From: a virus
DNA length: 64,000 nucleotides
Reading direction: 5' to 3' (one strand)
IMG/VR virus record: IMGVR_UViG_3300020203_000008
Span: 32,001-96,000 of that record
Below the pieces are notes generated by a model. That model made no database searches. It had not been told where the DNA came from and was given only the letters and a program-made list of their open reading frames with translations. A program made the position numbers and the translations under genes. This document shows, piece after piece, positions 15,205 through 58,472 of this stretch. Every line of letters starts with the position of its first letter. Position 1 is the stretch's first letter.

Positions 15205-15968
15205 GCCCAGGTGTAGATGTTGTCGTTTGTAATTACCGGACTCCTGGAGATCTTGCAGCCTTCATAGATCATTACGATCCCGAGATCCCAAATACGCTTC
15301 ACGTATCAGACGTAGATCCGATCGAACCGTATCCAATCGAAGAGTCCCTGAACGTCCGGTACTTTTCCCACAACTTCAATCTTGGCTATGCCCGAGCGGT
15401 CAACTATGCCGTCGCCCGTGGGAACCGAGAGACTGTCGCCATTTTCAATGCAGACACCGAACTCCGACCCGGAGTCCTGGAGGACTTGGCTGAGCAGATC
15501 CAACTTAACGACGATTGGGGTGCGGTGGGTCCACGTCAGGTCGATGGCTACGGAAGAATCACACATGCTGGGATCTTTGGAACGCTGGAACAACCAGCCC
15601 ATCGAGGTTGGCAGTCATCTGATAACTTTGAATATGAGGACGTAAGAACTGATGCTGTGACCATCTCTGGTTCGGCTTACGTCATTCGGCGTGAAGTCTG
15701 GGAGGAGATGACGAATTGTCCTTTCTATAAGAGGACAGCGCCGGAAGCAGAAGGGGCCTTCCTCCCGACGAATCACTACTACGAGGAAACTTATTGCTCA
15801 TACCATTTGCACGCGCATGATTATAAAGTGGTTTATTACGGACCAGCGTGCATGATCCACCAATGGCATCGAGCTTCTCCTGTCGGCGGCTGGGCCGAAC
15901 AGCAGATGGCTGAATCTCAGGCGACCTTCCGTGCCGCCTGTGACCTACATGGTATTGCTCACAATTGA
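15192..15968 (+). CDS. glycosyltransferase family 2
   Basis: VVVCNY, NLGYARAVN, FNAD, SGS...IRREVW, YYEET. Confidence 0.88.
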   Translation: MRILSPGVDVVVCNYRTPGDLAAFIDHYDPEIPNTLHVSDVDPIEPYPIEESLNVRYFSHNFNLGYARAVNYAVARGNRETVAIFNADTELRPGVLEDLAEQIQLNDDWGAVGPRQVDGYGRITHAGIFGTLEQPAHRGWQSSDNFEYEDVRTDAVTISGSAYVIRREVWEEMTNCPFYKRTAPEAEGAFLPTNHYYEETYCSYHLHAHDYKVVYYGPACMIHQWHRASPVGGWAEQQMAESQATFRAACDLHGIAHN

Positions 15969-16210
15969 TGTCTCTCTCAGAGGACCAGAAGCAACAGTTC
16001 AGGGATGCTGTAGCCGTTGTGACCGCAGCCTTCAACGATGAAGTCTTGATGGACGAACTATTGGATGACCTAGAGGGTCGTCAGGTTGTTTATGGTCTCA
16101 TCGGAATCATCGGATCGTTACTGGCCTGGGTTCAACAGACCACTGGTGAACCACCTTCAAGAATTATTCAGTTCATGGCTTCTAGGTTGGAAGAAGTGGA
16201 AGAAGAGTAA
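15965..16210 (+). CDS. hypothetical protein
   Basis: 81-aa ORF coupled to upstream stop. Confidence 0.6.
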   Translation: MMSLSEDQKQQFRDAVAVVTAAFNDEVLMDELLDDLEGRQVVYGLIGIIGSLLAWVQQTTGEPPSRIIQFMASRLEEVEEE

Positions 16211-26926: not shown

Positions 26927-27487
26927 ATGGCTAATGATCCGCGTCTGAGTGTTTTCTTGAGTTTGAATGCCGAGGGCCGCAAGGTCCCCTGGCAGGAACG
27001 CGTCAAGCTGATTCATGATGTTTTCCCTTCTACCACACAGATGGACTGGCGGAAGGCATTCAATGACATAGATCTATTTGGTCGAATCCTTCGTGACATC
27101 CTGAAGGTAGATCAGACTTCGCCTGGTCGTAGTGGGCCTCGTCCAGTGCTTGACCGCAAGAAGGCAACAGAACGCCTTCGCCAATTCATGGGCGCTGACT
27201 TTTCGGATGCCATATTTGCTCAGGCATTCCGAGAGCTTTGTGGAGACAAGTCTGTCCGTGGTGTTGCAGCCAAAACTGGACTTGAGAAGACGATGGTCCA
27301 GAATCTGTTAACGGGAAAGCGACAGCCTGACGTTCAAATTATGGAACAGGTTGCGGAATCTTTTAAGAAGGATCCGTCTTACTTCTTTGAATATCGTGTT
27401 GCCTACGTGCTTGCAGCTCTAGGTGACAAAATGGCTGGTGCTCCAGAGATGACAGTGGATCTCTACAAAAGATTAAGGGGATCGTAA
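26927..27487 (+). CDS. HTH DNA-binding protein
   Basis: SVRGVAAKTGLEKTMVQNLLTGKRQP (XRE-like HTH). Confidence 0.7.
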   Translation: MANDPRLSVFLSLNAEGRKVPWQERVKLIHDVFPSTTQMDWRKAFNDIDLFGRILRDILKVDQTSPGRSGPRPVLDRKKATERLRQFMGADFSDAIFAQAFRELCGDKSVRGVAAKTGLEKTMVQNLLTGKRQPDVQIMEQVAESFKKDPSYFFEYRVAYVLAALGDKMAGAPEMTVDLYKRLRGS

Positions 27488-30400
27488 TGGGCGTTATTGA
27501 GGATCTATCTGAGGAAGAAGCGTATCTTTGGGCCATTTTGCAGGATGAATCGGGTTTGGATGTGGCTGAGTTTACATGGCATGATCCTGAGCAAGATGAT
27601 GGTTGCTGGCGAGCTTGGGCTTTTCAGTGGTCATGGTTTAGGGATACCTCACCGCTACAGATAGATCAGTCGGCGAGATCAATTGGCAAGTCTTTGTCAA
27701 TTAAGCTTCGGGCTTTTGTTTTTCCCTTTATACACCCTGGACAGGAGATGGTTATTACGGCTCCAGAAGGAGTACATATTGATGCCATCACCGATATTAT
27801 TGAGACTCAACTCATCTCTACGCGCCTATCTTTAGAGATGTTGCGGGGTGGTCGGTTGTCTTTTAAACATAAACCTTTTCATGTGAACTTCCAAAATGGA
27901 TCTCGTATTATGGGAAGGATTCCTCAGCGGTCTGGAGTGGGAGTGAAGGGTGTCCACCCTATCTGGCTAGAGCTTGACGAAGCGTCCGATTATCCTTCAG
28001 ATGGCTGGACGGAATTGATGGAAACCCTAAAGCGGGGGCATAAGGGAGCTGTGTGGCGTTGTCATGGCGTTACAAGAGGTGTGAGAGATAAGCACTATTA
28101 CAGGTTTACTGCTGATCCTAATACGCAATGGCGAGTACATAGATATAGCAGTATGTGGCGTCCTACTTGGACTGATGAGGAACGTCAAGAAAAGATTATG
28201 CAATATGGGAGTAAGGATGATCCTGATTATAGAAGGAATATCTTAGGACTTCATGGCGATAGTGTTTCTCCGATTTTTGTTCTCTCTCGGCTAATGAACT
28301 GCGTCGATGACGATAAAGAGTCAGATTATAACGCAGACGAATATCAATTCTTTAAAATTAATGATTCGCTACTTGCTGAGCAGAATGTAGATATTATCCA
28401 GCTTCTGGACTTTCCGCCTTATCACTTAAGTAAGTACAATACCTTTTGGGTGGGGATGGATGTAGGTATGACTAACCATCCGTCCGAGATTTTGATTTTT
28501 GCGGAAGAATTGCTGAAGCCATCAAGTGAAGAATATAAGACTCTTAAACGTCTGGGTAAAGCGATTTCTATTGAGGGGAAACCTCGCCTCAAACTCGTAA
28601 CGAGAATCAATCTGACCCGTATTGCTACTCCTGATCAGGTGAGAGCAATGCTATGGGTCATTGACTTCTATAAGCCACGGGCGTTTTCTCTTGACAAGAT
28701 GCAGCCGGTGAGTGAACCCGTTCTGACTCCTTCGGGTTGGGTGCCAATTGGAAGTCTGTCCGAGGGTGATCTCGTTATTGGGTCGGACGGTGCAGCTACA
28801 AAGGTCGTAGGGGTATTCCCGCAGGATGATCGTCGTGTCGTTCGTGTGACTTTTTCTGATGGTTCTTCGACGCGGTGTGGGCCGGAGCATTTGTGGACTA
28901 TCAAGCTTCGTAAGCGTCGTTGTGTTGAATCAATGTCTGTAACGACGGGGCAGATGATGGAACTGGCCCGTCGTTATGGTTCTTCGAAGATTACGATTCC
29001 CTTATTGTCGGGTCCTGTGGAATACGAACAGGGGCCTGAATTACCAATCGATCCCTACGTGTTAGGTTGCTTGCTAGGTGACGGTAATCTGCGCCTCAAC
29101 GGCATCAGGTTTTCTAGTGTGGACGAGGAAATCTTAGATAATATGCGAAGCCGTCTTCCCGAGGGTTTTGAGGTGAAACATACAGATCGCTGTAACTATA
29201 TTGTGAAAGCAGATGGATGGAGGCATGAACGGAATTCTAAGGGACAGTTCTGCCATCGCAATCCAATCCTTGATGTCCTACGTGATCTTGGTTTGGCTGG
29301 TACTCATTCGTGGGATAAATTTATCCCTGAAGTATATTTGCGAGCTACACCCGATGAACGTCTTGAATTACTTCGCGGCCTGATGGACACGGACGGCTAT
29401 TGCAGTGTGCAAAATGATGGTTGCACTATTGCCATAAGGTTGTCATCAGAAACGATGATTCGTCAGATTGGTGAGTTGGTGCAATCATTGGGTGGTGTGA
29501 CTAGGTTTCGGGATTTCACTACATCTTGTAATGGTAAGGCTGGGCGGCACGGATATCAGGTTACGATGGGTCTTCCTGTGGGAGTCAATCCGTTTCGTTT
29601 GAGCAGAAAGCGAGATGCCGTTATTCCACGTAGGCGTGCAATTACTCGCCACTTGGAAGCCATTGATCCGCAACCAGATGAGCAGTCTGTTTGTATTCGG
29701 GTGGCGGCAGAAGACGAGTTGTATGTCACTCGCGACCATATCCTTACCCATAATACCGGAATTGGACTTCCTCTTTTCCAGGAGCTTCAAGATAAAAACC
29801 GTCAGGCTGGAACTGTTGTAAAGGGTTATGGTTTCTCCGAGAAGCGTCTTGTTGGGTTCGATGAATCGATTGAAGTCGAAGAGGGTATTAGTAATGATGA
29901 TCTGGCCAAAGAGGCTGGTATCATGCGTAATGTAGTTGAGTATGCTTGTGTAGATGAAGAAACTGAGTTGTTGACTAGGCGAGGATGGAAACATTATCAA
30001 GAAGTAATAGAAAACGAAGATATATACACTTTGGATTGGCATTCACAGAAAGGCGAATGGGTTCCTGTTGAGAAGATTCTTCAATATGAGGGTTCGCATC
30101 CAGTTCGCCATATACGTACTCGTTGTTTTGATGCCGTGACAACACTTAATCACCGATGGTGGACGGAACGTTATGATCCTTATTCCAAGAAGCGAATTCG
30201 AGAGTGGAGAACAACAGATACGCTGCGAGCCGCATCGTCTATTCCTTTGAGGGCAGAGCCGGGAAGTAATCCTATTGAGTCTATTTATAGTGATTCGCTT
30301 GTCGAACTAGTCGCTTGGTTCTGGACGGAAGGTCACTTCAGAAGAGGGCGTAAATCCTTCTGTGGTGCAGGGCTAGCTCAGTCTGAAGATGTCAATTCTG

Positions 30401-31191
30401 TTTATGTTAAGAGAATACGCGAATGTATCGAGGAAGTATTTGATAAAAAAGATTGGCGACAATCCTCAAGAAATGGGATGGTTGAATGGCATTTGTCTGC
30501 TGTTGCGGCACGATTTCTTAACCAATATGTAACGGCCTATGAAAAGATTGTTCGACCTGAGTTTATTGCTTCTCTTACTTTAGAACAACTCAATTTGTTT
30601 ATTGAAACTTCAATTGATGCTGATGGATGGCGTCAAGTTGATGGAGCTAAGCTGGGTCAGTCTTCTCTGGATCGTTTACGATCTTTTGAAATGGCGTGTG
30701 TATTAGCGGGTAGATCTATTCATACTTGGCAGCGATCCGATCTTACAGGATGGGTAACTACTCTGCTAGTTCGAGATAACGTTACCCCCATTTCGACTTG
30801 TAAGATTTCGAGAAATGTTGAAGTGAGAACCCTCGACTACAATTATTCTGGAATTGTTTGGTGCCCACGGTCTCGTAACAATACTTTTTTGGCTCGTCGG
30901 AATGGTTCCATCTATTACACGGGAAATACAGATAAGCTTCGATTGCTGGTGGATGAGAAGCGTCTCTGGTTACCATGGGACGAAGATCTTATTGCTGAAT
31001 ATCAAGGACAGACCTACAAGGTTGTTCGATCAGCTATGAATCAATATGGGAAGAAAGAGTTCAGTCAGGGTAAGTTCCACGCGTTAGATGCTTCTCGAAT
31101 GGCTATCTTGGGATGGGCTCAGTATCAGATTGAGGAGATGATGGGCGAGAAAAATAAGGTTGAACCGGTCCTAGAACGCTTCGGACTTTAA
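27487..31191 (+). CDS. terL: terminase large subunit with two inteins (~555 aa after splicing)
   Basis: Walker A ARSIGKS, Walker B LELDEA, nuclease GMDVG, reconstituted LDK|TGIG, C-terminal HALDA; upstream of portal. Confidence 0.9.
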   Translation: MGVIEDLSEEEAYLWAILQDESGLDVAEFTWHDPEQDDGCWRAWAFQWSWFRDTSPLQIDQSARSIGKSLSIKLRAFVFPFIHPGQEMVITAPEGVHIDAITDIIETQLISTRLSLEMLRGGRLSFKHKPFHVNFQNGSRIMGRIPQRSGVGVKGVHPIWLELDEASDYPSDGWTELMETLKRGHKGAVWRCHGVTRGVRDKHYYRFTADPNTQWRVHRYSSMWRPTWTDEERQEKIMQYGSKDDPDYRRNILGLHGDSVSPIFVLSRLMNCVDDDKESDYNADEYQFFKINDSLLAEQNVDIIQLLDFPPYHLSKYNTFWVGMDVGMTNHPSEILIFAEELLKPSSEEYKTLKRLGKAISIEGKPRLKLVTRINLTRIATPDQVRAMLWVIDFYKPRAFSLDKMQPVSEPVLTPSGWVPIGSLSEGDLVIGSDGAATKVVGVFPQDDRRVVRVTFSDGSSTRCGPEHLWTIKLRKRRCVESMSVTTGQMMELARRYGSSKITIPLLSGPVEYEQGPELPIDPYVLGCLLGDGNLRLNGIRFSSVDEEILDNMRSRLPEGFEVKHTDRCNYIVKADGWRHERNSKGQFCHRNPILDVLRDLGLAGTHSWDKFIPEVYLRATPDERLELLRGLMDTDGYCSVQNDGCTIAIRLSSETMIRQIGELVQSLGGVTRFRDFTTSCNGKAGRHGYQVTMGLPVGVNPFRLSRKRDAVIPRRRAITRHLEAIDPQPDEQSVCIRVAAEDELYVTRDHILTHNTGIGLPLFQELQDKNRQAGTVVKGYGFSEKRLVGFDESIEVEEGISNDDLAKEAGIMRNVVEYACVDEETELLTRRGWKHYQEVIENEDIYTLDWHSQKGEWVPVEKILQYEGSHPVRHIRTRCFDAVTTLNHRWWTERYDPYSKKRIREWRTTDTLRAASSIPLRAEPGSNPIESIYSDSLVELVAWFWTEGHFRRGRKSFCGAGLAQSEDVNSVYVKRIRECIEEVFDKKDWRQSSRNGMVEWHLSAVAARFLNQYVTAYEKIVRPEFIASLTLEQLNLFIETSIDADGWRQVDGAKLGQSSLDRLRSFEMACVLAGRSIHTWQRSDLTGWVTTLLVRDNVTPISTCKISRNVEVRTLDYNYSGIVWCPRSRNNTFLARRNGSIYYTGNTDKLRLLVDEKRLWLPWDEDLIAEYQGQTYKVVRSAMNQYGKKEFSQGKFHALDASRMAILGWAQYQIEEMMGEKNKVEPVLERFGL
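28699..29754 (+). mobile_element. class 3-type intein with LAGLIDADG homing endonuclease (352 aa)
   Basis: Begins MQPVSEPVLTPSGW, ends ILTHN before Thr; EHLW, SVCIRV, THN; LGCLLGDG and LRGLMDTDG. Confidence 0.88.
29947..30927 (+). mobile_element. class 1 intein with LAGLIDADG-like endonuclease (327 aa)
   Basis: Begins CVDEETELLTRRGW, TLNH block B, ends RRNGSIYYTGN before Thr; AWFWTEG and SIDADG. Confidence 0.88.
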
Positions 31192-42309: not shown

Positions 42310-45300
42310 ATGGCTGATAACAATTTCGAATTTGGATTTACGTTCGACTGGTCTCAGCCAGAGCGCTCTACCGAACAGTTTATCCAAAAGGTCCGACGCG
42401 AGCTACAGCGTCTAAATCAGCTCTCTGTCTCGGGTGGTTCTCCGCTTAAGGGGGTTGAGGCTCTAGACTCGTCTACAAAAAAGCTGCTAGAGAGTGGAAG
42501 GCGCGCGAGCAGCTCTGCTACCGGATCTTCTCCTGCGGGTAAGCTGAATGAACAAGAAAAGGCGCGGGCTAGCGGCTTATCGGCCGAAACCAAAGCTCAG
42601 GGTCAGGCTGTTGAGGCGGTCAATGAGCGCCGTAGAGCCATTGATGCTCAAACTCGTCAGGCTGCACTCTTTACCAAACAAGACGCAGCAAATCTTCAGC
42701 AACTCAAGCGAGTCAGAACCCAGAATGCTCTCACTAGTGAGGGCGCTGTTACTGCCGGTGATAATAAGGCAGCAGGGGAACTCGTTGCCGCTAAGCGTCG
42801 TAGAGCCACAGCAGAACAACAGGCTGCTGAGAATGCAGTAAATCCTGGTGACATTAGGGCTAATGCTGAGCTAGCTTCTTCTAAGCGTCGTCGTGCTCTG
42901 CGTGAGAACCTTGCGGCTGAGCGCACTTATACACCTGCTGAAATCCAGGCAACTGGTGATCTCGTTGCGGCTAAGCGTCGTCGCGTTACGAAGGAACAAC
43001 AGGCTGCTGAGGGGGCTATTACTCCACAGGATAGGCAGGCAAGTGCCAATCTAGCGGCCATCAAGCAACGGCGTGTCGCACAGGAACGTGCGATTACAAC
43101 TCGTCAGACGGCTAGTGATCAGGAACTTTTACGAGCTAATGCCGAATCTGTTGTCAATTCTCGTTTGCGTTCGGCTCGTGAGAAGTCGTTTGTTAATGAG
43201 GCTGCTCTTGGCAAGGGTCCAAATGCTGGAACTGCTGCTACTGCTGCGAAGCTTGATGCAGAGAATGCAGTAAATTCGAAGCGAATCCGCGCCCAGCAGC
43301 AGGCTCTTGAAGAAAAGGCTATTGCGAGCGGTCCTGGTGGTAGGACCGGGTTCGTAAATGAGCAGGCCGGAGCACGATCAAGTCAGGCTCTCCTTAATGC
43401 ACAAATCAGAGCCGAGGCTACGCGTAGGCAGGCAGCTAGTTCTGAATATACTTCGGCGGTTGCTTCCACCGCCATCTCTCAGCGTCGTCTGAAGGCCAAG
43501 GTAGATGAGCAAGTAGCGAAGGCAGTTGTTGGAGATAGCGCGACCCTGCAACGCGAAGCAAATGCTGCTGTAGCTAAGAAAACTGCTGCAAACATTAAGT
43601 CTGCCAAAGTAGCGGAAAAGATTCTTGCTAATCAGTCAGGTGAGCTTGACGAGATTGTTCGTGCCAAGGTCGCTAATAAGCGACTCACTGCTGCTATTCA
43701 AGCTCGTGTTAATGCGGAATTGAAGGCTGCCCAGAACACTAATACGGCACCCGGCTCGGCTCAGGGTGGCGGAACCTTGTTCCAGCGTCTCCAATCACGC
43801 TTTGCTCAGCGAGGTAGTGGGCAGGGGGGGCAGGATCTACGTGCTCCTGAAGAGTTCCAGCGTCTCGGTCAGTTCGTTGGATCTAAGGCTCTTACTACCG
43901 GAGCTTTCGCCTTCTCGGGTGCAGCTCTCTTCGGTGTAGTGAATACAATCCAGGCTGCGGTTGAAGAGGCAAACAAGTTCCAGGTGGTTATGGTTTCCGT
44001 GGAACAGCAGTTGATTTCCACAGATCAGGCTGGTCAACTACCACAGTTCCGTAAGGCTATTATAGACATCTCTAATGAGACGGGGGTTGCAGCCTCCGAG
44101 GTTGGTTCCGTTGCATTCCAGTTGAGGGGTGCATTCGGAGACACGGCTAAATCAGTCGCGGAGGCTAGCGCAGCGATTAAGCTCTCTGTCGTTTCTGGTC
44201 TATCGGTAGGAGATATTACTGATAGCCTTACCGCTACTGCATTGTCCTACAAGACTTCGATTAATTCGATTGGTGACTCAGCCCTTGGTATTCAGGAGCG
44301 TACCGGTGTGCTCGCTAAGGAGACCATCCGATTTGTGGCCGATATTGCTCCGGTGGCTAAGCAGGTAGGTCTTAGCCTCAAAGAGATCACGGCTATTGGT
44401 GCGGTTGCTCAGCAGCAGAGTGGTCGTGGTGGTGCTGCATTAGCTGAAGCCTTTGGTCGTATCCTTCCGGAGGTTCAGAAGAGTGGGTCAGCAATCCTTG
44501 AGTTGTATAACTCCACGCCTGCTCTGGCTGGACGTGTTGGCCAAATAGGTAATGCTCTGTCTCAAGGTAATACGGGGACTGTACTTAAGGCTCTTATTGA
44601 TGATTATGGCAAGCTTGATAGAACTACACAGAACTATGTCGTTACTCTACTCGGTGGTCGTCGTGAAGCTGCTTCTCTTATCCCGGTCCTCCGGAATGCC
44701 AGTAAAGTAAACCAACTGATTGCCCAATCGTCTACTGATGCAGGTAAGACGCAGGAGTATTTTGCTAGGGTTCAGAGAACCCTTTCGACTGAGGTTCAGC
44801 GCATCACTCGTGAGTTCCAGAACTTCATCGGAACGCTACTGCGTGCGGGCCTTTCGGACATCTTGAGGGATGTCCTCATCGTGGGAGGGCTTCTTCTCCG
44901 TGTTATCGGTGGGCTGGCCCGTACCTTCCAGTCCCTTAATGAGGTTCTTGGTGGCTTCCCGGTAAAGATTCTCGCCGGAGCGGCAGCAATGGCTTTGCTT
45001 CTTAAGAGTGCAAGAGCTTTGGGTGGACTAAACCTTGTTCAGTCTCTCGGTGGATTCTTTGGAATAGGTTCTCGGGCTGGTGGCCTAGGTGGAGTCCGAG
45101 GAATTGCCGGTCGTGTCGGTAACTTCTTTGGAGCTTCTTCTAATGCTGCACAATCTCAGCGTGCTGCTGCTCAGTCTGCTTCTGCGGCTCGGGGTACCCA
45201 GTTCTCTTCGCTGCTCGGACTCAATCAGGGTGGACTTCAACAGGCTCCGTTAGGTGGCCGACTTGGTGGGATAAACCAATTTGTTCGCGGTCAGTCCAAC

Positions 45301-47751
45301 TTCTTCAATCGAAGTAGTGGATTTGCTAACACAGTCGGTGCTGGTCTTGCTTTCGCTGGTGTTAATGTCCTCTTGGATTCTCGCACTAAGTACCAATCTG
45401 AAGCCTTGGACTGGGCGAACCGGATTCGAAGTGCCGATGAAGATGCTGTTGACAAGATTATTGCCAAGTACAATAAGCAACAAGCCCCGACAAATACTCT
45501 CAAGGACAGTATCAGCGGCAAACTCAATGGACTCCTCCCTGTCGGTGGAGCGCTTCAGGGTCTTGCTGCATTCCTTACTAACGAGGAGTTCCGGGGTGAA
45601 GTAACAACCTTCTTTAGTGGGGGAAAGACCAAGGACGACGTTGTTGAAGATTCTCTCCAGCAAAGACGTGCAGCCAACAATACCGTTCCTCTCTTAGAAG
45701 CATTCAAGAGTGAGTATAAGAAGAGGAATACTGCAAGAATTGTTAAGTTCAAGGAGGTTGTTGATTTTCTACAGAGCGGTCAGTTCGGTGAGGGTAAGAT
45801 TCTTGAGATCTTCAAGGAGCCGGAAGCGGCAGCTAAGCTCACCGGCAAGCAAGCAGCGAAGCAGATTCAAGCTGTTATAGACTTCTTGGGTGACGGTTCA
45901 GATGATGCTGCCAATCAGATCGTTGAAAATTATATCCAGATTCTACAGAGCAACCCGGCTACTCCTAAGAGGCTCTTGAAGAATGTTGTTGCCGCGCTTC
46001 GTGATTCCCAGAAAAAAGCTTCAGATCAAGCTGGACCGACTGGCGCTGATCGCGAGACTCTTGATACATCCAAGGCTCTTTTTGAGGCTGGAGATAAGCC
46101 TCTTAATGAATACATCAAGTCCCTTGATTCTTTTATCTCGGCGCTTAAGACTATAAAAGATCCTAGTGATGATCAAAAGAAGGACCTTGCCCAGAAGCAG
46201 AAGGAGGCTAGGGACGCCCTAACGACTGCGGCGAAGGAACAGAACGATCTCATCAAGTTTGTGGATGAACTTCGTGCTGGCGAAGCTCGTCCAATTGACC
46301 AGCTAAATGCAGCGAGAGGACTACTAAATAATCCCAATCTTACGGCAGAGGGTCAGGTTGAAGCGGCTAAGGGAGTTCTCTCTGCCCAGCAGGATGTGTT
46401 CCTCCAAGCTGTTACTTCTTCGGGCAAAGGCATCGGTAGCGTTATTGCTGATCTACAGGCCGGATTTAAGCCTGACGCCAAGGCACTTGCAGTCATTCGG
46501 AAGCGAGTAGCTGACCTTAATGCTCGTGGTATCAACGTCAGTGTTGATGATATTGTTGCTGGTCAGGCCAAGGGTGCCCGTGAGGAAGTAAACAAGCTTC
46601 TTGATCTTCAGGGTCGTCAGTCTGCCGTGGCGATTGGACCTAATGCTGTCAACCAGGCAGCCCTGTCTCTGCGTACCGCTCAGGCGAAGCTTAAGAATGC
46701 TGCTCCAGGTACAAGTACAATTGAAGCACAGACGGTTGTCCTTGAAGCCCAGAAGGGCTTGAATGATGCTATTAGGACTCAGGCTCGGGCCGTTGAAGAT
46801 GGTTACCAGGCACTCTCTCGGGCCTCGCTTGGGAATCAGAATCCTATTGCCCAGGCCAGGTTCGATATCGCTGGCGCTGATATCGCCACCCGTCGCGCCT
46901 ACGAGGACCAGGATCCAGGTGCCCTAATCCAGGCGCTGGCTACTCGTCGCCAGGCTGGGGTTGCCCTCTTGAAGGCGCAACAGGACATTGACGACGCTTA
47001 TAGGGAACTTCTCAAGAGTCAGACGAACGATCCAATTAAGCAGGCTTACTCAGATATTGTTGCAGCCAGTGTTGCTTTCGACAGAGCTAATGCTCAGAAC
47101 GACCAGGCCGCTGCCTTCCGGGCCTTGGCCCAAAGGAATGAAGCCATCAAGGCAGGGCTTGCTAGCATTAGTGACCTGTACTCTTCCATTAATGAGTTTG
47201 CTACATCCCTCGCCAACTTTAAGGGCGATGCGGTGTCGGCTGCCGAGATCAGTGTCACTGAGGCTACTAGGAAGCTCCAGGAAGCCGTCAGTCAGGATGC
47301 TGGTCAGGCTTCTATTAATCGGGCTCGGGCGGCCCTACAGGATGCTCAGGGGGGTCTCCGGGATTCCAAGCTGAACAAGCAGTTGGACGATATCGACTTT
47401 GCTTTGGAGCTATCCAAGATCTCTGTTAATCAGGCCATTCAGCAGTTAACTGCTCTCCTCCAGATTCCTAATCTAACAGAGGAGCAGACTCGTGGAATTC
47501 TGCGTAAGATCAACTCCCTGAAGCAGGGACTGAGCCAGGATCTCCAGTTTAATCTGCCAACTGAATTGAAGTTGCCTACCCTCTACGAGTCTCGCCGCTT
47601 GAACCAGAGCAATGGGGCTTACCAGGATAATCGAGTTATATCTATTCAGTTGTCTCCGAATACTCCGACAGATCTTAATGCGGCAGTACAGCAGATTGTG
47701 GATGCCGTGAATCAGCCTCCTGTACTCGGATCAAGACCTAGGATTTATTGA
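42310..47751 (+). CDS. tape measure protein
   Basis: 1813 aa, A/Q/K-rich helical, TP901-like core and hydrophobic G-rich segment; follows chaperones. Confidence 0.92.
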   Translation: MADNNFEFGFTFDWSQPERSTEQFIQKVRRELQRLNQLSVSGGSPLKGVEALDSSTKKLLESGRRASSSATGSSPAGKLNEQEKARASGLSAETKAQGQAVEAVNERRRAIDAQTRQAALFTKQDAANLQQLKRVRTQNALTSEGAVTAGDNKAAGELVAAKRRRATAEQQAAENAVNPGDIRANAELASSKRRRALRENLAAERTYTPAEIQATGDLVAAKRRRVTKEQQAAEGAITPQDRQASANLAAIKQRRVAQERAITTRQTASDQELLRANAESVVNSRLRSAREKSFVNEAALGKGPNAGTAATAAKLDAENAVNSKRIRAQQQALEEKAIASGPGGRTGFVNEQAGARSSQALLNAQIRAEATRRQAASSEYTSAVASTAISQRRLKAKVDEQVAKAVVGDSATLQREANAAVAKKTAANIKSAKVAEKILANQSGELDEIVRAKVANKRLTAAIQARVNAELKAAQNTNTAPGSAQGGGTLFQRLQSRFAQRGSGQGGQDLRAPEEFQRLGQFVGSKALTTGAFAFSGAALFGVVNTIQAAVEEANKFQVVMVSVEQQLISTDQAGQLPQFRKAIIDISNETGVAASEVGSVAFQLRGAFGDTAKSVAEASAAIKLSVVSGLSVGDITDSLTATALSYKTSINSIGDSALGIQERTGVLAKETIRFVADIAPVAKQVGLSLKEITAIGAVAQQQSGRGGAALAEAFGRILPEVQKSGSAILELYNSTPALAGRVGQIGNALSQGNTGTVLKALIDDYGKLDRTTQNYVVTLLGGRREAASLIPVLRNASKVNQLIAQSSTDAGKTQEYFARVQRTLSTEVQRITREFQNFIGTLLRAGLSDILRDVLIVGGLLLRVIGGLARTFQSLNEVLGGFPVKILAGAAAMALLLKSARALGGLNLVQSLGGFFGIGSRAGGLGGVRGIAGRVGNFFGASSNAAQSQRAAAQSASAARGTQFSSLLGLNQGGLQQAPLGGRLGGINQFVRGQSNFFNRSSGFANTVGAGLAFAGVNVLLDSRTKYQSEALDWANRIRSADEDAVDKIIAKYNKQQAPTNTLKDSISGKLNGLLPVGGALQGLAAFLTNEEFRGEVTTFFSGGKTKDDVVEDSLQQRRAANNTVPLLEAFKSEYKKRNTARIVKFKEVVDFLQSGQFGEGKILEIFKEPEAAAKLTGKQAAKQIQAVIDFLGDGSDDAANQIVENYIQILQSNPATPKRLLKNVVAALRDSQKKASDQAGPTGADRETLDTSKALFEAGDKPLNEYIKSLDSFISALKTIKDPSDDQKKDLAQKQKEARDALTTAAKEQNDLIKFVDELRAGEARPIDQLNAARGLLNNPNLTAEGQVEAAKGVLSAQQDVFLQAVTSSGKGIGSVIADLQAGFKPDAKALAVIRKRVADLNARGINVSVDDIVAGQAKGAREEVNKLLDLQGRQSAVAIGPNAVNQAALSLRTAQAKLKNAAPGTSTIEAQTVVLEAQKGLNDAIRTQARAVEDGYQALSRASLGNQNPIAQARFDIAGADIATRRAYEDQDPGALIQALATRRQAGVALLKAQQDIDDAYRELLKSQTNDPIKQAYSDIVAASVAFDRANAQNDQAAAFRALAQRNEAIKAGLASISDLYSSINEFATSLANFKGDAVSAAEISVTEATRKLQEAVSQDAGQASINRARAALQDAQGGLRDSKLNKQLDDIDFALELSKISVNQAIQQLTALLQIPNLTEEQTRGILRKINSLKQGLSQDLQFNLPTELKLPTLYESRRLNQSNGAYQDNRVISIQLSPNTPTDLNAAVQQIVDAVNQPPVLGSRPRIY

Positions 47752-54207: not shown

Positions 54208-54732
54208 ATGGCTGACTGGGATCCATTTATCGCATCAAACGCTCCGACCATCTGTCCTACGAGTGCTGAGTCAACTGGTGCTCAGGCCATATGTGATGGC
54301 AACATTCTTAGTAGTATTTGGGCAGTTGCCAACACGGCTGTCTACATTCCGTTTGTTGTCTACCAGTCATTTATGGTTGTGAAGTTGAGTGTCTGGAATG
54401 GAACAGTTGTTGCCGGTAACTTTGACTTGGGTGTGTATGATGATCAGAAGAACAGGCTGGTTTCTTCTGGTTCTACGGCTCAGGCTGGTACATCTGTTAT
54501 TCAGACAGTAGATGTCACCGATGTATTGCTATTGCCTGGTCAGTATTATATGGCGTGTGTTGCTAATGGGATTAGCGGTCGATACTTTAAGTACACATCT
54601 GTTGCTTCTGTCCAGGGGTCATGGGGAGTTCTGAGTCAGACCTCTGCGTTCCCGCTGCCTACTACGGCTAATTGGGTACGTAACACGATGGAGGCTCCAA
54701 TAATGATGGTTCACCAAAGGACGACAAACTAA
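54208..54732 (+). CDS. putative virion beta-sandwich protein (paralog A)
   Basis: Shares NGT.VAGN.D.G.Y, RLVS.GSTAQ.G and LL.PG.YYMA with the next gene. Confidence 0.7.
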   Translation: MADWDPFIASNAPTICPTSAESTGAQAICDGNILSSIWAVANTAVYIPFVVYQSFMVVKLSVWNGTVVAGNFDLGVYDDQKNRLVSSGSTAQAGTSVIQTVDVTDVLLLPGQYYMACVANGISGRYFKYTSVASVQGSWGVLSQTSAFPLPTTANWVRNTMEAPIMMVHQRTTN

Positions 54733-55259
54733 TGAGTGACTGGCCAACTATCTTTTCTCACAACAGCACGATCAATTCTTCTTCACAGGAAGTGCCGATA
54801 GCCTTTGTGTTCGGTAGCGCTTCTAGTGCCTGGCCATCGGCTAACCGAGGTATCTTTGTGCCGTTTAATCTTCGCGCTCCTTTTCTTGTGCAGAGATTAT
54901 TCTGGCTCAATGGAACCTCGGTCGCAGGTAATGTTGATTGTGGTATTTATATGACTACGAATCCGGGTAATTGCACAAGGCTGGTGAGCACAGGAAGTAC
55001 GGCTCAGTCGGGAGGGACAGCCATCCAGGCTGTCAATATTACTCCTCTTTTGCTACAGCCAGGTGGCTATTACATGGCTCTATCAGTTTCTACTACTTCG
55101 GCAACCATTAGGACAAGAGGATCTAACGTGGTGGCTTGCCAGGCTGCTGGGATCGTACAAGCACCGTCCATGGTGCCACTGACCACGAATCCAACGCTGG
55201 AAGCTCCGGTCTCCAATTATCTGCCATTGTTTGGCCTAACCTCAGCATTAGTGATTTAA
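54732..55259 (+). CDS. putative virion beta-sandwich protein (paralog B)
   Basis: Tandem paralog of 54208..54732. Confidence 0.7.
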   Translation: MSDWPTIFSHNSTINSSSQEVPIAFVFGSASSAWPSANRGIFVPFNLRAPFLVQRLFWLNGTSVAGNVDCGIYMTTNPGNCTRLVSTGSTAQSGGTAIQAVNITPLLLQPGGYYMALSVSTTSATIRTRGSNVVACQAAGIVQAPSMVPLTTNPTLEAPVSNYLPLFGLTSALVI

Positions 55260-55278: not shown

Positions 55279-55635
55279 ATGGCTGTAACTGCATCTGCTT
55301 CAGGAACTCAGACCGCAGAAGTGACGACAGAACATCAGTTGGCAGATACTTATGTCGCTGGAACTTATACGTTCCATGTTGATACGGTTAACCTGGCGGC
55401 GGGAGATGTTGTTGAGCTGAGAATTTACCAAATGATCTTGAACGGTGGAACCGCTAGGGTCATCTACTCAACCAGATATGCAGGCGCTCAGCCTACCGAC
55501 GATCTCATTAAGGTTAGCGTACCTGTTAGTAGCGAGCTAGGTTCTGCCTCGCCAAGCGTAGCGCTGCGATTCAGCTTGAAGCAGACTTTCGGGACTTCCA
55601 GGAACTTTCCTTGGAAGGTACTTAAGTACGCCTGA
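55279..55635 (+). CDS. putative virion structural protein
   Basis: 118 aa, T/A-rich, in tail operon. Confidence 0.6.
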   Translation: MAVTASASGTQTAEVTTEHQLADTYVAGTYTFHVDTVNLAAGDVVELRIYQMILNGGTARVIYSTRYAGAQPTDDLIKVSVPVSSELGSASPSVALRFSLKQTFGTSRNFPWKVLKYA

Positions 55636-57227
55636 TGGCATCTGCGTCGACCCGCCATATTGAAGTTCTCTTACCTACTATAGCCGGATTGGTTAATCCA
55701 ACTGTAGTAATAGCTACAAGCGCGGTTGGTTCTCCAGCGATTCAGACTAGTTCCACGGTTGTTGTCTCCACTGTTACTGCTGTTGCGGCGGTGGGGGTTG
55801 CTACAGTAGAGACTGGTACTCCAGCTACAGTTAATGCAACGGCGGTGAGTGCTGTTGCTGCGGTTGGAACGGTAACTATCACGACATCAGCCCTTGTGAC
55901 TGCCGTTGTGGTGTCTCGTTCTGTGGCGGTAGGTGTACCTACAATCTCCACTATTACTTCTTCTCCAGTAAATGTTGCTTGCGGGGTGTTCAGTAAATCC
56001 ACATCCGCTGCTCCAGTGTCGCAATCTGTTACGCTTGGGTTTCAGCCCAAAGCGGTATTTCTGTGGTCTGATAGTACGACCGTTGATGACACTCTAGCCA
56101 CTAATGGCATGTTCACGGTGGGTATTACATCCTCTGTTACAGACTCTATCGCCGTGTGTAATTATGCACCTAATGGGAGCAACTCGATCAACCGGCATAA
56201 GACACATGGAGATAGCAAGCTTATTGTTTTCAGGACAACAACAATTCTAGCAGAAGCCAGCCTGACATCTTTTAATGTAGATGGATTCACTATGTCGTGG
56301 ACCACCAATAATGCCACGGCATACCGGATTAACTATATAGCCTTTGGCGGCGATGACGTTACTGCCCAGATGGTGAAATGGTATCCCACCGACAATATCG
56401 AGCAGTTCTCTGTTACTGGGGTGGGCTTCCAGCCTGATGCACTTCTTAATGTCAACAGTTATGTCAACTTTGATGGAGGATCTCTTCCCCGCACTGTCAC
56501 GGGAATCAACTTCGGGATTGGGGCAGCTTCGCCTTCAGGGCAATTTACCACTTACATGGGGGAGACGACGGGCTTCGGGGGCAACGAGGTTTCTTATTCT
56601 AGGTTCATTGATGATGGTTTCGTAAGCTTCAATGGATTTTTGGGGGGAACAGAGAGTTGTAGAATTGCCCTTGTCTCAATGGATGTAGACGGATTTACGG
56701 TGAATGCTACGAAAGTGGGCACCGGAGCCATTGAATTATACGCATTAGCGTTAAAATTTGATTCTGGGTCTATAGAAGTAGGAAACTTCCAGAAATCCAC
56801 ATCCTCTGCTCCAGCTACACAGAATTTGTCTAGCGTGGTCATCTCTCCAGATTCTATGTTCTTTGTTGGGGATAAAGTTACGACGCCAGATACCGATGTA
56901 GCTAACGCTCATCTCTATGTGGGTTCAGGGGATGATGCTGCTCAAGTGAGTACTGCTTGGGGGGCCAGGAATGGGACGAATCCATCTGAAGTTAAGTCGA
57001 TCAGTGGGGGCACTAAAGCTATTACTGTTAATGATGGCACTAATATGGGTGTCGCTGATGCTAAAGCTTCGCTATCTCTAGCGTCAGCGATTCCGGTTCT
57101 CACTTGGGACCCCAACTCATCTAATGCCGTTAATATGGGTTATATGGCATTCCAGTTCGGCGTGGAGTCTGGTGGCGGTGGGGGATCTGGCAATGCTGTC
57201 TTGACTCCTGGCTTCATTCCACTCTGA
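55635..57227 (+). CDS. putative fibre protein: N-terminal T/V/A repeats plus repeated GFQP/DGFT modules
   Basis: N-terminal repeats like those of 10581..11684; LGFQPKA, GVGFQPDA, VDGFT. Confidence 0.7.
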   Translation: MASASTRHIEVLLPTIAGLVNPTVVIATSAVGSPAIQTSSTVVVSTVTAVAAVGVATVETGTPATVNATAVSAVAAVGTVTITTSALVTAVVVSRSVAVGVPTISTITSSPVNVACGVFSKSTSAAPVSQSVTLGFQPKAVFLWSDSTTVDDTLATNGMFTVGITSSVTDSIAVCNYAPNGSNSINRHKTHGDSKLIVFRTTTILAEASLTSFNVDGFTMSWTTNNATAYRINYIAFGGDDVTAQMVKWYPTDNIEQFSVTGVGFQPDALLNVNSYVNFDGGSLPRTVTGINFGIGAASPSGQFTTYMGETTGFGGNEVSYSRFIDDGFVSFNGFLGGTESCRIALVSMDVDGFTVNATKVGTGAIELYALALKFDSGSIEVGNFQKSTSSAPATQNLSSVVISPDSMFFVGDKVTTPDTDVANAHLYVGSGDDAAQVSTAWGARNGTNPSEVKSISGGTKAITVNDGTNMGVADAKASLSLASAIPVLTWDPNSSNAVNMGYMAFQFGVESGGGGGSGNAVLTPGFIPL

Positions 57228-57261
57228 TTTATGTCGATATGTTCGTGACCTAAGGAGTCAC

Positions 57262-57447
57262 ATGGGACAGATCCGTAAGCAGAGAAAAGTCGAGAAAAAG
57301 GTTGAGTCTGTAGCGGAACCGGTCGAAGCCAAGGACAGTACTGCCCTTAAAGCTGAAATGGATGCACTCCTAGATGAGATTGATTCAGTCCTAGAGGAAA
57401 ATGCAGCGGAGTTTGTTAAAGGCTACATTCAAAAAGGGGGGGAATGA
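57262..57447 (+). CDS. pup: prokaryotic ubiquitin-like protein Pup (C-terminal GGE)
   Basis: DALLDEIDSVLEENAAEFVKGYIQKGGE* aligns with the Pup hallmark DDLLDEIDDVLEENAEDFVRAYVQKGG(Q/E); TAAGGAG RBS. Confidence 0.93.
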   Translation: MGQIRKQRKVEKKVESVAEPVEAKDSTALKAEMDALLDEIDSVLEENAAEFVKGYIQKGGE

Positions 57448-57659
57448 ACGAAGAAGACGAGCTACTTCGCAAGCTGGACGAAGAAATGCAGGATCGCAAG
57501 GTCATCTCCCTCATCCTCCGAGAGGGGCAGCCGGTGGAGGTCGAAAATGGAGGGCTTCCAGCCGATACTGTATTAGCAACACTATTTAAGGCTCTACTTT
57601 TCCTGGTCTTGGATGATTATATGGATGAAGACGAAATCCTTTACGAGGAAGAAGACTAG
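57444..57659 (+). CDS. acidic hypothetical protein translationally coupled to Pup
   Basis: ATGA overlap with pup stop; 71 aa. Confidence 0.7.
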   Translation: MNEEDELLRKLDEEMQDRKVISLILREGQPVEVENGGLPADTVLATLFKALLFLVLDDYMDEDEILYEEED

Positions 57660-57673
57660 GGAAGAAGAGAGCG

Positions 57674-57862
57674 GTGAACAAAATCGCCATCCAGAGGGCT
57701 AATGGGATTACCAGAATTGGGATTCTCTGTGAAGGTCATACCTCCGATGCGATTGGAATTCTCGTTAAAGCGGGTAAGGAATACCGGATACGAGAGTACG
57801 ACGGGCCTCAAATCTGTGAAGCCTGTGGACAAACAGACTATCTCCATGTGGAGGAGGGTTAA
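57674..57862 (+). CDS. small Cys/His hypothetical protein
   Basis: CEGH...CEAC; coupled to holin. Confidence 0.55.
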   Translation: MNKIAIQRANGITRIGILCEGHTSDAIGILVKAGKEYRIREYDGPQICEACGQTDYLHVEEG

Positions 57863-58203
57863 TGAATTCGATTGTAAAGCTTGATGTTGGTTTCTTGGCC
57901 ATCGTTGCGGGTACGTTCATTCCGATCGTGGTCGCATTGGTAACCAAGTGGAAGACATCTTCAGGAGTCAAGGCTGTCGTTAATGGTTTACTAGCCGCTG
58001 TAGCCGGTGCTGTCGCTGTCGCTACCCAGGCTAATGGAGTCGTTAACGTCAGGAATACGGTAGGGGCTATTGCTCTAGCGTGGTTGACTTCTGTTGCCAC
58101 CTACTATGGCCTTTGGAAGCCAACTGGAATTGCTAATGCAGTTGGTGAGAAGACCCAGAACGTGGGTATTGGTTCGAATCAATCCGGTATTCCGGGGGCA
58201 TAA
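57862..58203 (+). CDS. holin (actinophage type)
   Basis: PIVVALVTK...KAVVNGLLA...SVATYYGLWKPTG; three hydrophobic segments. Confidence 0.75.
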   Translation: MNSIVKLDVGFLAIVAGTFIPIVVALVTKWKTSSGVKAVVNGLLAAVAGAVAVATQANGVVNVRNTVGAIALAWLTSVATYYGLWKPTGIANAVGEKTQNVGIGSNQSGIPGA

Positions 58204-58205
58204 TT

Positions 58206-58472
58206 GTGGACCGGCTAAAGTCGGGCACGGCAGGATGGGTCCTTCTCACCGCATTAGTGTTGAGTTGGGACTACGGAGTAGGTATGCGGGCGGGGGGAGA
58301 AACTCTCTCTTCCAGTTTTGCTAGAGCCACTCGCCATCCCCGTGCCCGATGGCCGGTTATATCTATGTGGGTTATCATAACGGCTCATTTGTTTGAACGG
58401 TTGCCAGAGATGGTTGATCCATTTCATCATATGGCAAAAGTAGTCAGCACGCGGGGGGCGGGGCGTGAGTGA
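58206..58472 (+). CDS. small membrane-associated protein
   Basis: GW..L...V..WD...GETLS...HP..RW....W....AHL....P...DP pattern seen in actinophage proteins. Confidence 0.65.
   Translation: MDRLKSGTAGWVLLTALVLSWDYGVGMRAGGETLSSSFARATRHPRARWPVISMWVIITAHLFERLPEMVDPFHHMAKVVSTRGAGRE

Follow-up and report, generated by a model that had tools for sequence, protein, structure and literature searches.

A canonical Pup gene between tail and holin-like genes of a phage genome record without matches to pupylation enzymes

Why would a phage carry the gene for a bacterial protein tag with no ligase, depupylase, unfoldase or proteasome gene beside it? Pupylation is regarded as serving housekeeping and stress responses in Actinobacteria and a small number of further phyla, and its tag, Pup, is ligated directly by PafA when it ends in Gly-Gly-Glu (GGE), whereas a GGQ end needs Dop first. 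A gene for the GGE-ending form occurs in the stretch of DNA analysed here (the window), 64,000 nucleotides that represent bases 32001-96000 of the IMG/VR virus record IMGVR_UViG_3300020203_000008 (G000; 136,572 bp, rated 96% complete by CheckV). A preliminary description of the window had reported a phage-encoded Pup between tail-fibre and holin genes, translationally coupled to a small acidic protein that was put forward as a candidate adaptor. The features of the locus as they now stand are collected in Table 1.

Table 1. Genes and signals around the phage Pup gene, with positions numbered from the first base of the window
Feature	Position	Strand	Remarks
Terminase large subunit	27487-31191	+	Upstream of Pup
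Tape measure	42310-47751	+	Family match; tail-protein matches also in the module
Weak tail-fibre match	54732-55259	+	phrog_15641, E 0.0017; neighbour of the 530-aa gene
530-aa protein, last large gene of the tail module	55635..57227	+	ORF; putative tail fibre by position
Shine-Dalgarno-like AAGGAG	57252..57257	+	4 nt 5' of the Pup ATG; read from the sequence
Pup gene	57262..57447	+	61 aa; C-terminus ...FVKGYIQKGGE, then TGA
71-aa acidic ORF	57444..57659	+	ATG overlaps the Pup stop (ATGA)
62-aa ORF	57674..57862	+	ORF; CxxC motif near the C-terminus
Holin-like membrane protein, 113 aa	57862..58203	+	phrog_8269 'holin', E 7e-10
DUF7427 protein, 88 aa	58206..58472	+	PF24202, E 7.3e-12; phrog_1042, E 7.3e-11

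The phage gene codes for a genuine Pup of canonical form, 61 aa long, and its family match lies far beyond chance. The Pfam Pup model (PF05639) matches residues 3-61 with E 3.5e-19 and 69.9 bits (cut-off 27), and the NCBIfam equivalog_domain model TIGR03687, 'ubiquitin-like protein Pup', scores 62.5 bits (cut-off 41.45), so both curated cut-offs are passed; the last three residues are Gly-Gly-Glu. The C-terminal region of Pup is the part held by Mpa, PafA and Dop in solved complexes. Residues 28-61 of the window Pup were found to align gap-free with the Pup chains of PDB entries 3m9d/3m91, 7oy3 and 4bjr (E 2.7e-9 to 2e-6), whose titles name complexes with Mpa (3m9d), PafA (4bjr) and Dop (7oy3). 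Counted by hand on these alignments, identity to 7oy3_B is 23 of 28 residues and identity to 3m9d_G is 23 of 34. The protein is within the typical Pup size of about 60-70 aa, and the region bound by Mpa, PafA and Dop appears to be kept. Sequence, coordinates and both family models therefore agree with the 61-aa Pup that had been described as bearing the full C-terminal signature ending KGGE; the comparison with PF05639 that had been suggested as a check gave a match above the cut-off, and the strong ribosome-binding site that had been claimed is present as an AAGGAG 4 nt ahead of the start codon.

As a protein, the window Pup is a further member of the known Pup family. It resembles cellular Pups in length, in a variable, charged N-terminal half and in a conserved C-terminal stretch of 34 residues ending GGE, and nothing in its sequence distinguishes it from them. 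The closest proteins in a collection of 5.8 billion are metagenomic and 64-70% identical. The N-terminus had been singled out as lysine-rich, which is true of the window Pup (five lysines ahead of the conserved 34 residues) but ordinary, because, among 155 other distinct Pups, 40% equal or exceed that number of lysines in the same part. What differs from cellular Pups is the setting: the cellular loci used for comparison, L087, L047 and L106 among them, have Pup next to dop, pafA, mpa/arc and prcBA genes, whereas the window Pup is a phage gene with none of them alongside.

The phage location is directly supported by the genes on either side. One strand carries the terminase, tape measure, tail proteins, holin, exonuclease and Sak4, the exonuclease and the Sak4-like annealing protein being encoded 3' of Pup. 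The gap between the last tail gene and Pup is only 34 nt. The claimed holin neighbour was corroborated by a family match (Table 1), and 'tail fibre' is a plausible name for the 530-aa protein from its position at the distal end of the tail module; searches of Pfam, PHROG and NCBIfam gave no match for this protein, nor for the 62-aa CxxC ORF. Between the tail gene and the holin gene no promoter-like or terminator-like site was found, so Pup is probably co-transcribed late with the tail and lysis genes.

A Pup gene in a viral contig could also be an artefact, either through misassembly with a host pup locus or because a bacterial contig was miscalled as viral. Such artefacts exist: the GenBank entry MT835496.1 ('UNVERIFIED: Bacteriophage sp.') holds a dop-pup-pafA locus that looks cellular, in which a Dop-like ORF and a PafA-like ORF enclose Pup. 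The window is of a different kind. Phage genes lie on both flanks of Pup on the same strand, no cellular pupylation gene occurs anywhere in the record, and synteny with a complete phage record with terminal repeats (G005, described below) runs across the Pup locus. In addition, contigs from public sequencing runs span the junctions between tail gene and Pup, between Pup and the 71-aa ORF, and between the 71-aa ORF and holin with zero differences (X10 at 57040-57376; X8 at 57273-57592 and 57605-58212; X4 over the whole stretch), although X4 may be the source sample and the spanning runs may belong to one sampling campaign. The contig is no fusion of phage DNA with a host pup locus, the outcome that would have undone the preliminary description, and an artefact of either kind is scarcely credible.

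The runs listed with matches comprise 11 of 12 labelled microbial mat metagenome (2018), which are possibly one campaign and of which three may be the source, and one of 12 labelled soil metagenome (2023, share 0.40); no RNA data set is among the 12. The soil run contributes five short pieces, two at at least 99% identity, two at 95-99% and one at 90-95%. A single T>C difference was seen at 57467; it is synonymous by codon reading, and at a depth of 3 it may be an error. Variation among the runs is too small for a population test.

The absence of pupylation enzymes extends beyond the window. The preliminary description had found no pafA, dop, mpa/arc or prcAB in the window, and the same was found to hold for the entire 136,572-bp record, in which neither PF03136 (PafA/Dop) nor PF00227 (proteasome) has a match. 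The family searches for the pathway enzymes were positive in the reference genomes expected to contain them. The sole PF00004 (AAA) match in the record is a 300-aa RuvB with RuvB_N and RuvB_C domains and no unfoldase of the Mpa/ARC type. The record does not hold a Pup-proteasome locus, in which Pup occurs together with dop, pafA, mpa/arc and usually prcBA. Lacking a ligase, a depupylase, an unfoldase and a proteasome of its own, the phage could put its Pup to work only through the machinery of the host.

Since this Pup keeps everything needed for conjugation and the phage has no enzymes of its own, ligation by host PafA is the most economical reading. We lean, with modest confidence, towards the explanation that a canonical, host-derived Pup is kept as an accessory late gene and functions through host ligation, sustaining or raising pupylation late in infection. 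The phage would supply extra conjugatable Pup at this stage, host PafA would attach it to lysines of host, and perhaps of phage, proteins, and pupylation-dependent turnover or remodelling would be sustained or raised while host gene expression fails. The ligation by PafA, its timing, its targets and the benefit to the phage are what we infer. Free Pup may be limiting. A point that speaks against host ligation of a supplied tag is that a host already making Pup has no obvious need of more.

A syntenic relative of the window phage shows that the gene has been retained. G005 is an IMG/VR record of 163,481 bp with direct terminal repeats, rated 100% complete, with 60.4% G+C against 50.7% in the window phage. 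The two records share 40 reciprocal best hits (mean identity 47%, median 48%), collinear through the structural module. The Pup of G005 (67 aa, approximately 15963-16166) is 64% identical to the window Pup over 53 residues and occupies the same syntenic place, tail genes followed by Pup followed by a lysis cassette: it lies between glycine-rich tail-module proteins and a cassette with an Amidase_2 plus PG_binding_1 endolysin. As in the window phage, the G005 genome has no PafA/Dop (PF03136), no proteasome (PF00227) and no Mpa-type AAA protein. The two Pups differ in their last residue, the G005 protein ending GGQ and the window protein GGE, so that the G005 Pup would need host Dop before ligation. 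They also differ in what follows, since the G005 Pup is followed by a coupled ORF of 45 aa that is unrelated to the 71-aa ORF of the window.

This retention bears on the possibility that Pup is a neutral passenger, a host gene recently captured at a moron-type junction and without a role in infection. The gene does sit at the junction of tail and lysis modules, where accessory genes gather; in other phages Pup is found at other junctions (terminase/HNH, portal-protease and endolysin), and the window Pup is not distinguishable from cellular Pups by sequence. Against a passenger, the gene remains at the same syntenic place in G005 despite a mean identity of only 47% among the common proteins. 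Between the window and G005 Pups pN is 0.23 and pS 0.81, with synonymous sites saturated, and dN/dS is 0.11-0.38 in six of ten phage Pup pairs, which include two window pairs, the other four being saturated at synonymous sites. Purifying selection on the phage Pups is directly supported by these values. Together with the 24 distinct orphan copies described below, they make a neutral passenger quite improbable.

How widespread are Pup genes of this kind? When IMG/VR was scanned with a Pup alignment, 30 loci with 24 distinct Pup sequences were found. Grouping of the viral loci by common ORFs merged nearly all of them, probably through spurious high-GC ORFs, and distinct Pup sequences were counted instead. 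No homologue of PafA, Dop or the proteasome was found by tblastn within 5 kb on either side at any of 31 loci, comprising the 30 from IMG/VR and that of the Streptomyces phage Dagobah; the queries were the ORFs of 11 cellular loci, including PafA and Dop of four genomes, and in the positive control Dop and PafA were recovered at E below 1e-70. The window Pup, set between phage genes and with no ligase in its vicinity, belongs to this group of phage-borne orphan Pups. Among 113 neighbouring ORFs of 24 loci, the commonest PHROG families are HNH endonuclease (up to 7 members), terminase large subunit (phrog_9 with 6, phrog_2 with 3 and two others with 2 each) and portal (3 and 2). At one locus (L007) Pup lies directly 5' of terminase and portal, and at another (L006) it lies between a portal-MuF fusion and an XkdF-type prohead protease. 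From these comparisons of sequence and gene order, orphan phage Pups are recurrent, occupy late-gene regions or module junctions, and are under purifying selection.

The C-termini of the 24 distinct IMG/VR phage Pups are GGQ in 13, GGE in nine, QGQ in one and SGQ in one. The GGE end, which had been described as needing no deamidation by Dop, is not a phage adaptation that bypasses Dop, because most of these Pups end GGQ, as does that of G005, and GGE is common among cellular Pups too in the sets compared here. The same count is a point against the explanation through host ligation, in that phage Pups do not all share the 'ligation-ready' form.

The phage Pup, abundant and either free or conjugated, might instead work as a decoy or inhibitor that saturates Mpa/ARC, the proteasome or Dop, such that pupylated phage proteins are spared and the host Pup-proteasome system no longer acts as an antiviral pressure. 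Nothing is missing from the region that aligns to the Mpa-bound part of Pup, and the lysine-desert hypothesis for actinophages, as given in PMC10665810 and PMC13696103, implies that pupylation is a pressure on phages. A pure inhibitor, however, needs no intact GG-E/Q end, and yet 22 of the 24 distinct phage Pups keep GGE or GGQ. The whole PafA/Dop-contact region is likewise kept in the window Pup, and an intact GGE Pup would be conjugated, so that pupylation would be raised and not lowered. We therefore regard a decoy as unlikely.

The 71-aa ORF downstream of Pup is a real gene, as it is a member of a conserved small family. Five small homologues (72-85 aa, E 3.2e-8 to 1.6e-4) that have its layout came from a HMMER search of 1.84 billion representatives. 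Three long repeat proteins that also matched in this search (P0124, P0126 and P0128) were set aside, as these matches look compositional, and weak matches inside large ORFs in two of 401 genomes (E about 1e-3) were taken as chance. No match to the 71-aa ORF was found in Pfam, PHROG or NCBIfam, and Atlas matches were all below 0.9. The AlphaFold2 model (pLDDT 74.9) is predicted to consist of a helix, a beta-hairpin, a long helix and an acidic tail, and a Foldseek comparison of this model with the PDB gave no match at E 0.001 or better.

Does this protein form a two-gene module with Pup, in which the two cooperate and the 71-aa protein serves as adaptor or chaperone for the tag? The ATGA overlap at 57444 bears out the translational coupling that had been claimed, and, with the family conservation, it speaks for a module. 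Moreover, an ORF of at least 30 aa starts between about 12 nt before and 25 nt after the Pup stop at 25 of 32 loci (the window, Dagobah and the 30 from IMG/VR). The partners, however, are not the same. In G005 the homologue of the 71-aa ORF (128633-128827, E 4.6e-15) lies about 112 kb away from Pup, and the ORFs 3' of other phage Pups show no relation to the 71-aa ORF and, for the most part, none to one another. A scan of IMG/VR with the alignment of the 71-aa family found none, and no homologue was found in four other Pup-bearing virus records. Complex prediction for Pup with the 71-aa protein, in runs made without controls, gave scores of 0.01 and 0.00 against a mark of 0.32, which carry no weight in either direction. 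The survey of phages for pup plus the downstream ORF, which had been suggested as a check, showed over 32 loci that the pairing is not conserved, and the candidate adaptor that had been proposed is not kept beside Pup; a cooperating module of these two genes is highly improbable.

A comparable arrangement outside IMG/VR is found in an annotated phage. A search of GenBank phages with three Pup queries gave matches only in Dagobah and in the cellular-type entry discussed above. In Dagobah (MT711977.1), HUN42_00036 (QMP84414.1) is annotated 'ubiquitin-like protein Pup'. Like the window Pup, it is an orphan phage Pup with a GGE end; it adjoins a lysis gene (endolysin), and a small ORF of about 70 aa comes close behind it. 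Unlike the window Pup, it is 78 aa long with a longer acidic middle, identity being 60% over the last 35 residues, and it belongs to a 47-kb phage with no other gene common to the window phage in the locus compared. The words ubiquitin, Pup, pupylation and proteasome are absent from the main text of the Dagobah genome paper (PMC7650747). The system had been presented as undescribed. This stands insofar as no paper on a phage-encoded Pup was found, judged from titles and abstract openings, and it fails insofar as GenBank already annotates Pup in Dagobah.

Which bacterium would supply the enzymes? WhiB and Rpf families are hallmarks of Actinobacteria and their phages. The genes in the record of the window phage include one for a WhiB-family protein (PF02467, 48.7 bits; cut-off 23.6), and G005 encodes an Rpf-type transglycosylase domain (PF06737); the host is therefore probably an actinobacterium. 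Similarity of the Pup itself does not settle the host. In a scan of genomes by peptide patterns, the closest cellular Pups were mostly from Nitrospirales (58-68% identity), with patterns that bias toward that motif. Among 401 genomes from the phylum to which an uncultured actinobacterium (G001) belongs, 196 have a Pup match, a tally that includes 14 genomes flagged unpublished, and the best match has 57% identity and 57 bits. A quick tree of 102 rows and 67 columns leaves 58 of its 98 inner branches unresolved; in it the window Pup groups with the viral Pup of locus L003, an Actinomycetaceae row and one row from the actinobacterial sample (SH-aLRT 89), outside a group of 61 Nitrospirota rows. 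This placement outside Nitrospirota is weakly indicated.

Pupylation has been discussed as a pressure on phages of such hosts. Mycobacteriophages were proposed to avoid pupylation via lysine deserts (PMC10665810; Szulc et al., 2023), and the same proposal appears in a 2026 review (PMC13696103). The accessible parts of both texts make no mention of a phage Pup, and in those of a 2021 pupylation review (PMC8223512) bacteriophage comes up solely where Hfq is discussed. In the window phage, avoidance of lysine was considered and is not striking: lysine makes up 4.4% of residues in the proteome, and 12 of 92 proteins of at least 150 aa have a lysine-free stretch of at least half their length. This proteome is not lysine-poor and so gives no hint that phage proteins are protected from a raised pupylation, a point against the explanation through host ligation.

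What would follow if the tag is supplied for use by the host enzymes? Virus-encoded ubiquitin of eukaryotic viruses, such as v-ubi of baculovirus, is a host tag carried without conjugating enzymes; its fold, conjugation chemistry and host domain differ from those of Pup, and the likeness is one of analogy only. More broadly, it is possible, and is suggested here tentatively, that phages of Pup-bearing bacteria routinely carry Pup, which would be attached by host PafA and would reprogram unfolding and degradation late in infection, for example of defence proteins or of bulk protein for amino acids. If true, this would be the first virus to take over bacterial ubiquitin-like tagging by supplying the tag itself. 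An orphan and well-conserved tag in at least 24 distinct phage sequences, with syntenic retention at 47% identity, points to a selected phage-host tagging interaction. New here are the syntenic pair of diverged phages that both keep Pup and the clear negative result on the proposed adaptor. A phage Pup is relevant, too, to the published idea that actinophages escape pupylation by adjusting how much lysine they contain. The phenomenon of phage Pups is recurrent, is not described in the literature searched and is open to experiment: a direct test is possible in Dagobah, a Pup carrier on S. coelicolor that is in culture.

The exact 61-aa sequence of the window Pup (57262-57447) was absent from a collection of 15 billion proteins, in which the adjoining 71-aa acidic ORF was present on 8 contigs. 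The Pup seems to have been overlooked by gene callers. The 71-aa ORF belongs to a family of small acidic phage proteins (see the table), in which a helix at the N-terminus is followed by a beta-hairpin, then by a hydrophobic helix of the LFKALLF type and an acidic tail. This family was not recovered by word-based search, exhaustive HMMER being the only search type that retrieved it.

A constant gene order at Pup was observed in a single phage lineage from IMG/VR (loci L012-L015, L031, L033 and L034), in which a Pup ending in GGQ is followed by a conserved 92-93-aa ORF that abuts or overlaps the Pup stop, then by a 74-77-aa ORF and an ORF of about 550 aa. Among the large-protein matches of Pup neighbours, PHROG terminase families were the most frequent, and Pup therefore seems to be the first gene of the packaging operon in this lineage. 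At another IMG/VR locus (L006/L018), a Pup-like ORF is flanked on one side by an XkdF-type prohead protease and on the other by a portal-MuF fusion of 1463 aa that also contains LAGLIDADG and NUDIX domains; both its position and its C-terminal end are atypical for Pup.

MT835496.1, a 159-kb record from faecal samples titled "UNVERIFIED: Bacteriophage sp.", carries what is, judged by its gene arrangement, a cellular-type locus, and this scaffold may therefore be of bacterial origin. Pup matches to the window protein were also found in genomes beyond Actinomycetota and Nitrospirota, namely in a genome contig titled Candidatus Saccharibacteria bacterium (L088; 63% identity) and in Candidatus Methylomirabilota (L116; 48% identity).

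The WhiB-family gene carried by G000, the 136,572-bp phage record containing the window, points to an actinobacterial host. The terminase large subunit of the window phage, at 1234 aa, is much longer than its best match in the related 163,481-bp phage G005, a protein of 546 aa (61% identity across 407 residues), and its product also matches endonuclease and primase/DnaC-like PHROGs; the gene probably contains at least one inserted element, either an intein or a homing endonuclease. The two phages also each encode a RuvB-like AAA ATPase, with 49% identity between the pair.

Features of the window phage, its relative G005 and other Pup-bearing records
Feature	Location	Details
Acidic phage protein family, ~70-85 aa	window 57444-57659; P0125, P0127, P0129-P0131; L215:1405-1710 (G005)	
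Pup-like ORF ending AQGQ	L006/L018, IMG/VR contig of 15,007 bp	between two head genes
Pup flanked by a Dop-like ORF of 449 aa and a PafA-like ORF of 467 aa	L227, GenBank MT835496.1, 42133-45216	
WhiB-family gene	G000:C1:14468-14743 (L198), outside window	PF02467, 48.7 bits
Terminase large-subunit gene	window 27487-31191	encodes 1234 aa
245-aa protein with Rpf-type transglycosylase domain	L215:2104-2844 (G005)	PF06737, E 3.8e-16
RuvB-like AAA ATPase, ~300 aa	G000:C1:106615-107520 (-)	RuvB_N + RuvB_C domains
RuvB-like AAA ATPase, ~300 aa	G005:C1:39182-40090 (-)	RuvB_N + RuvB_C domains
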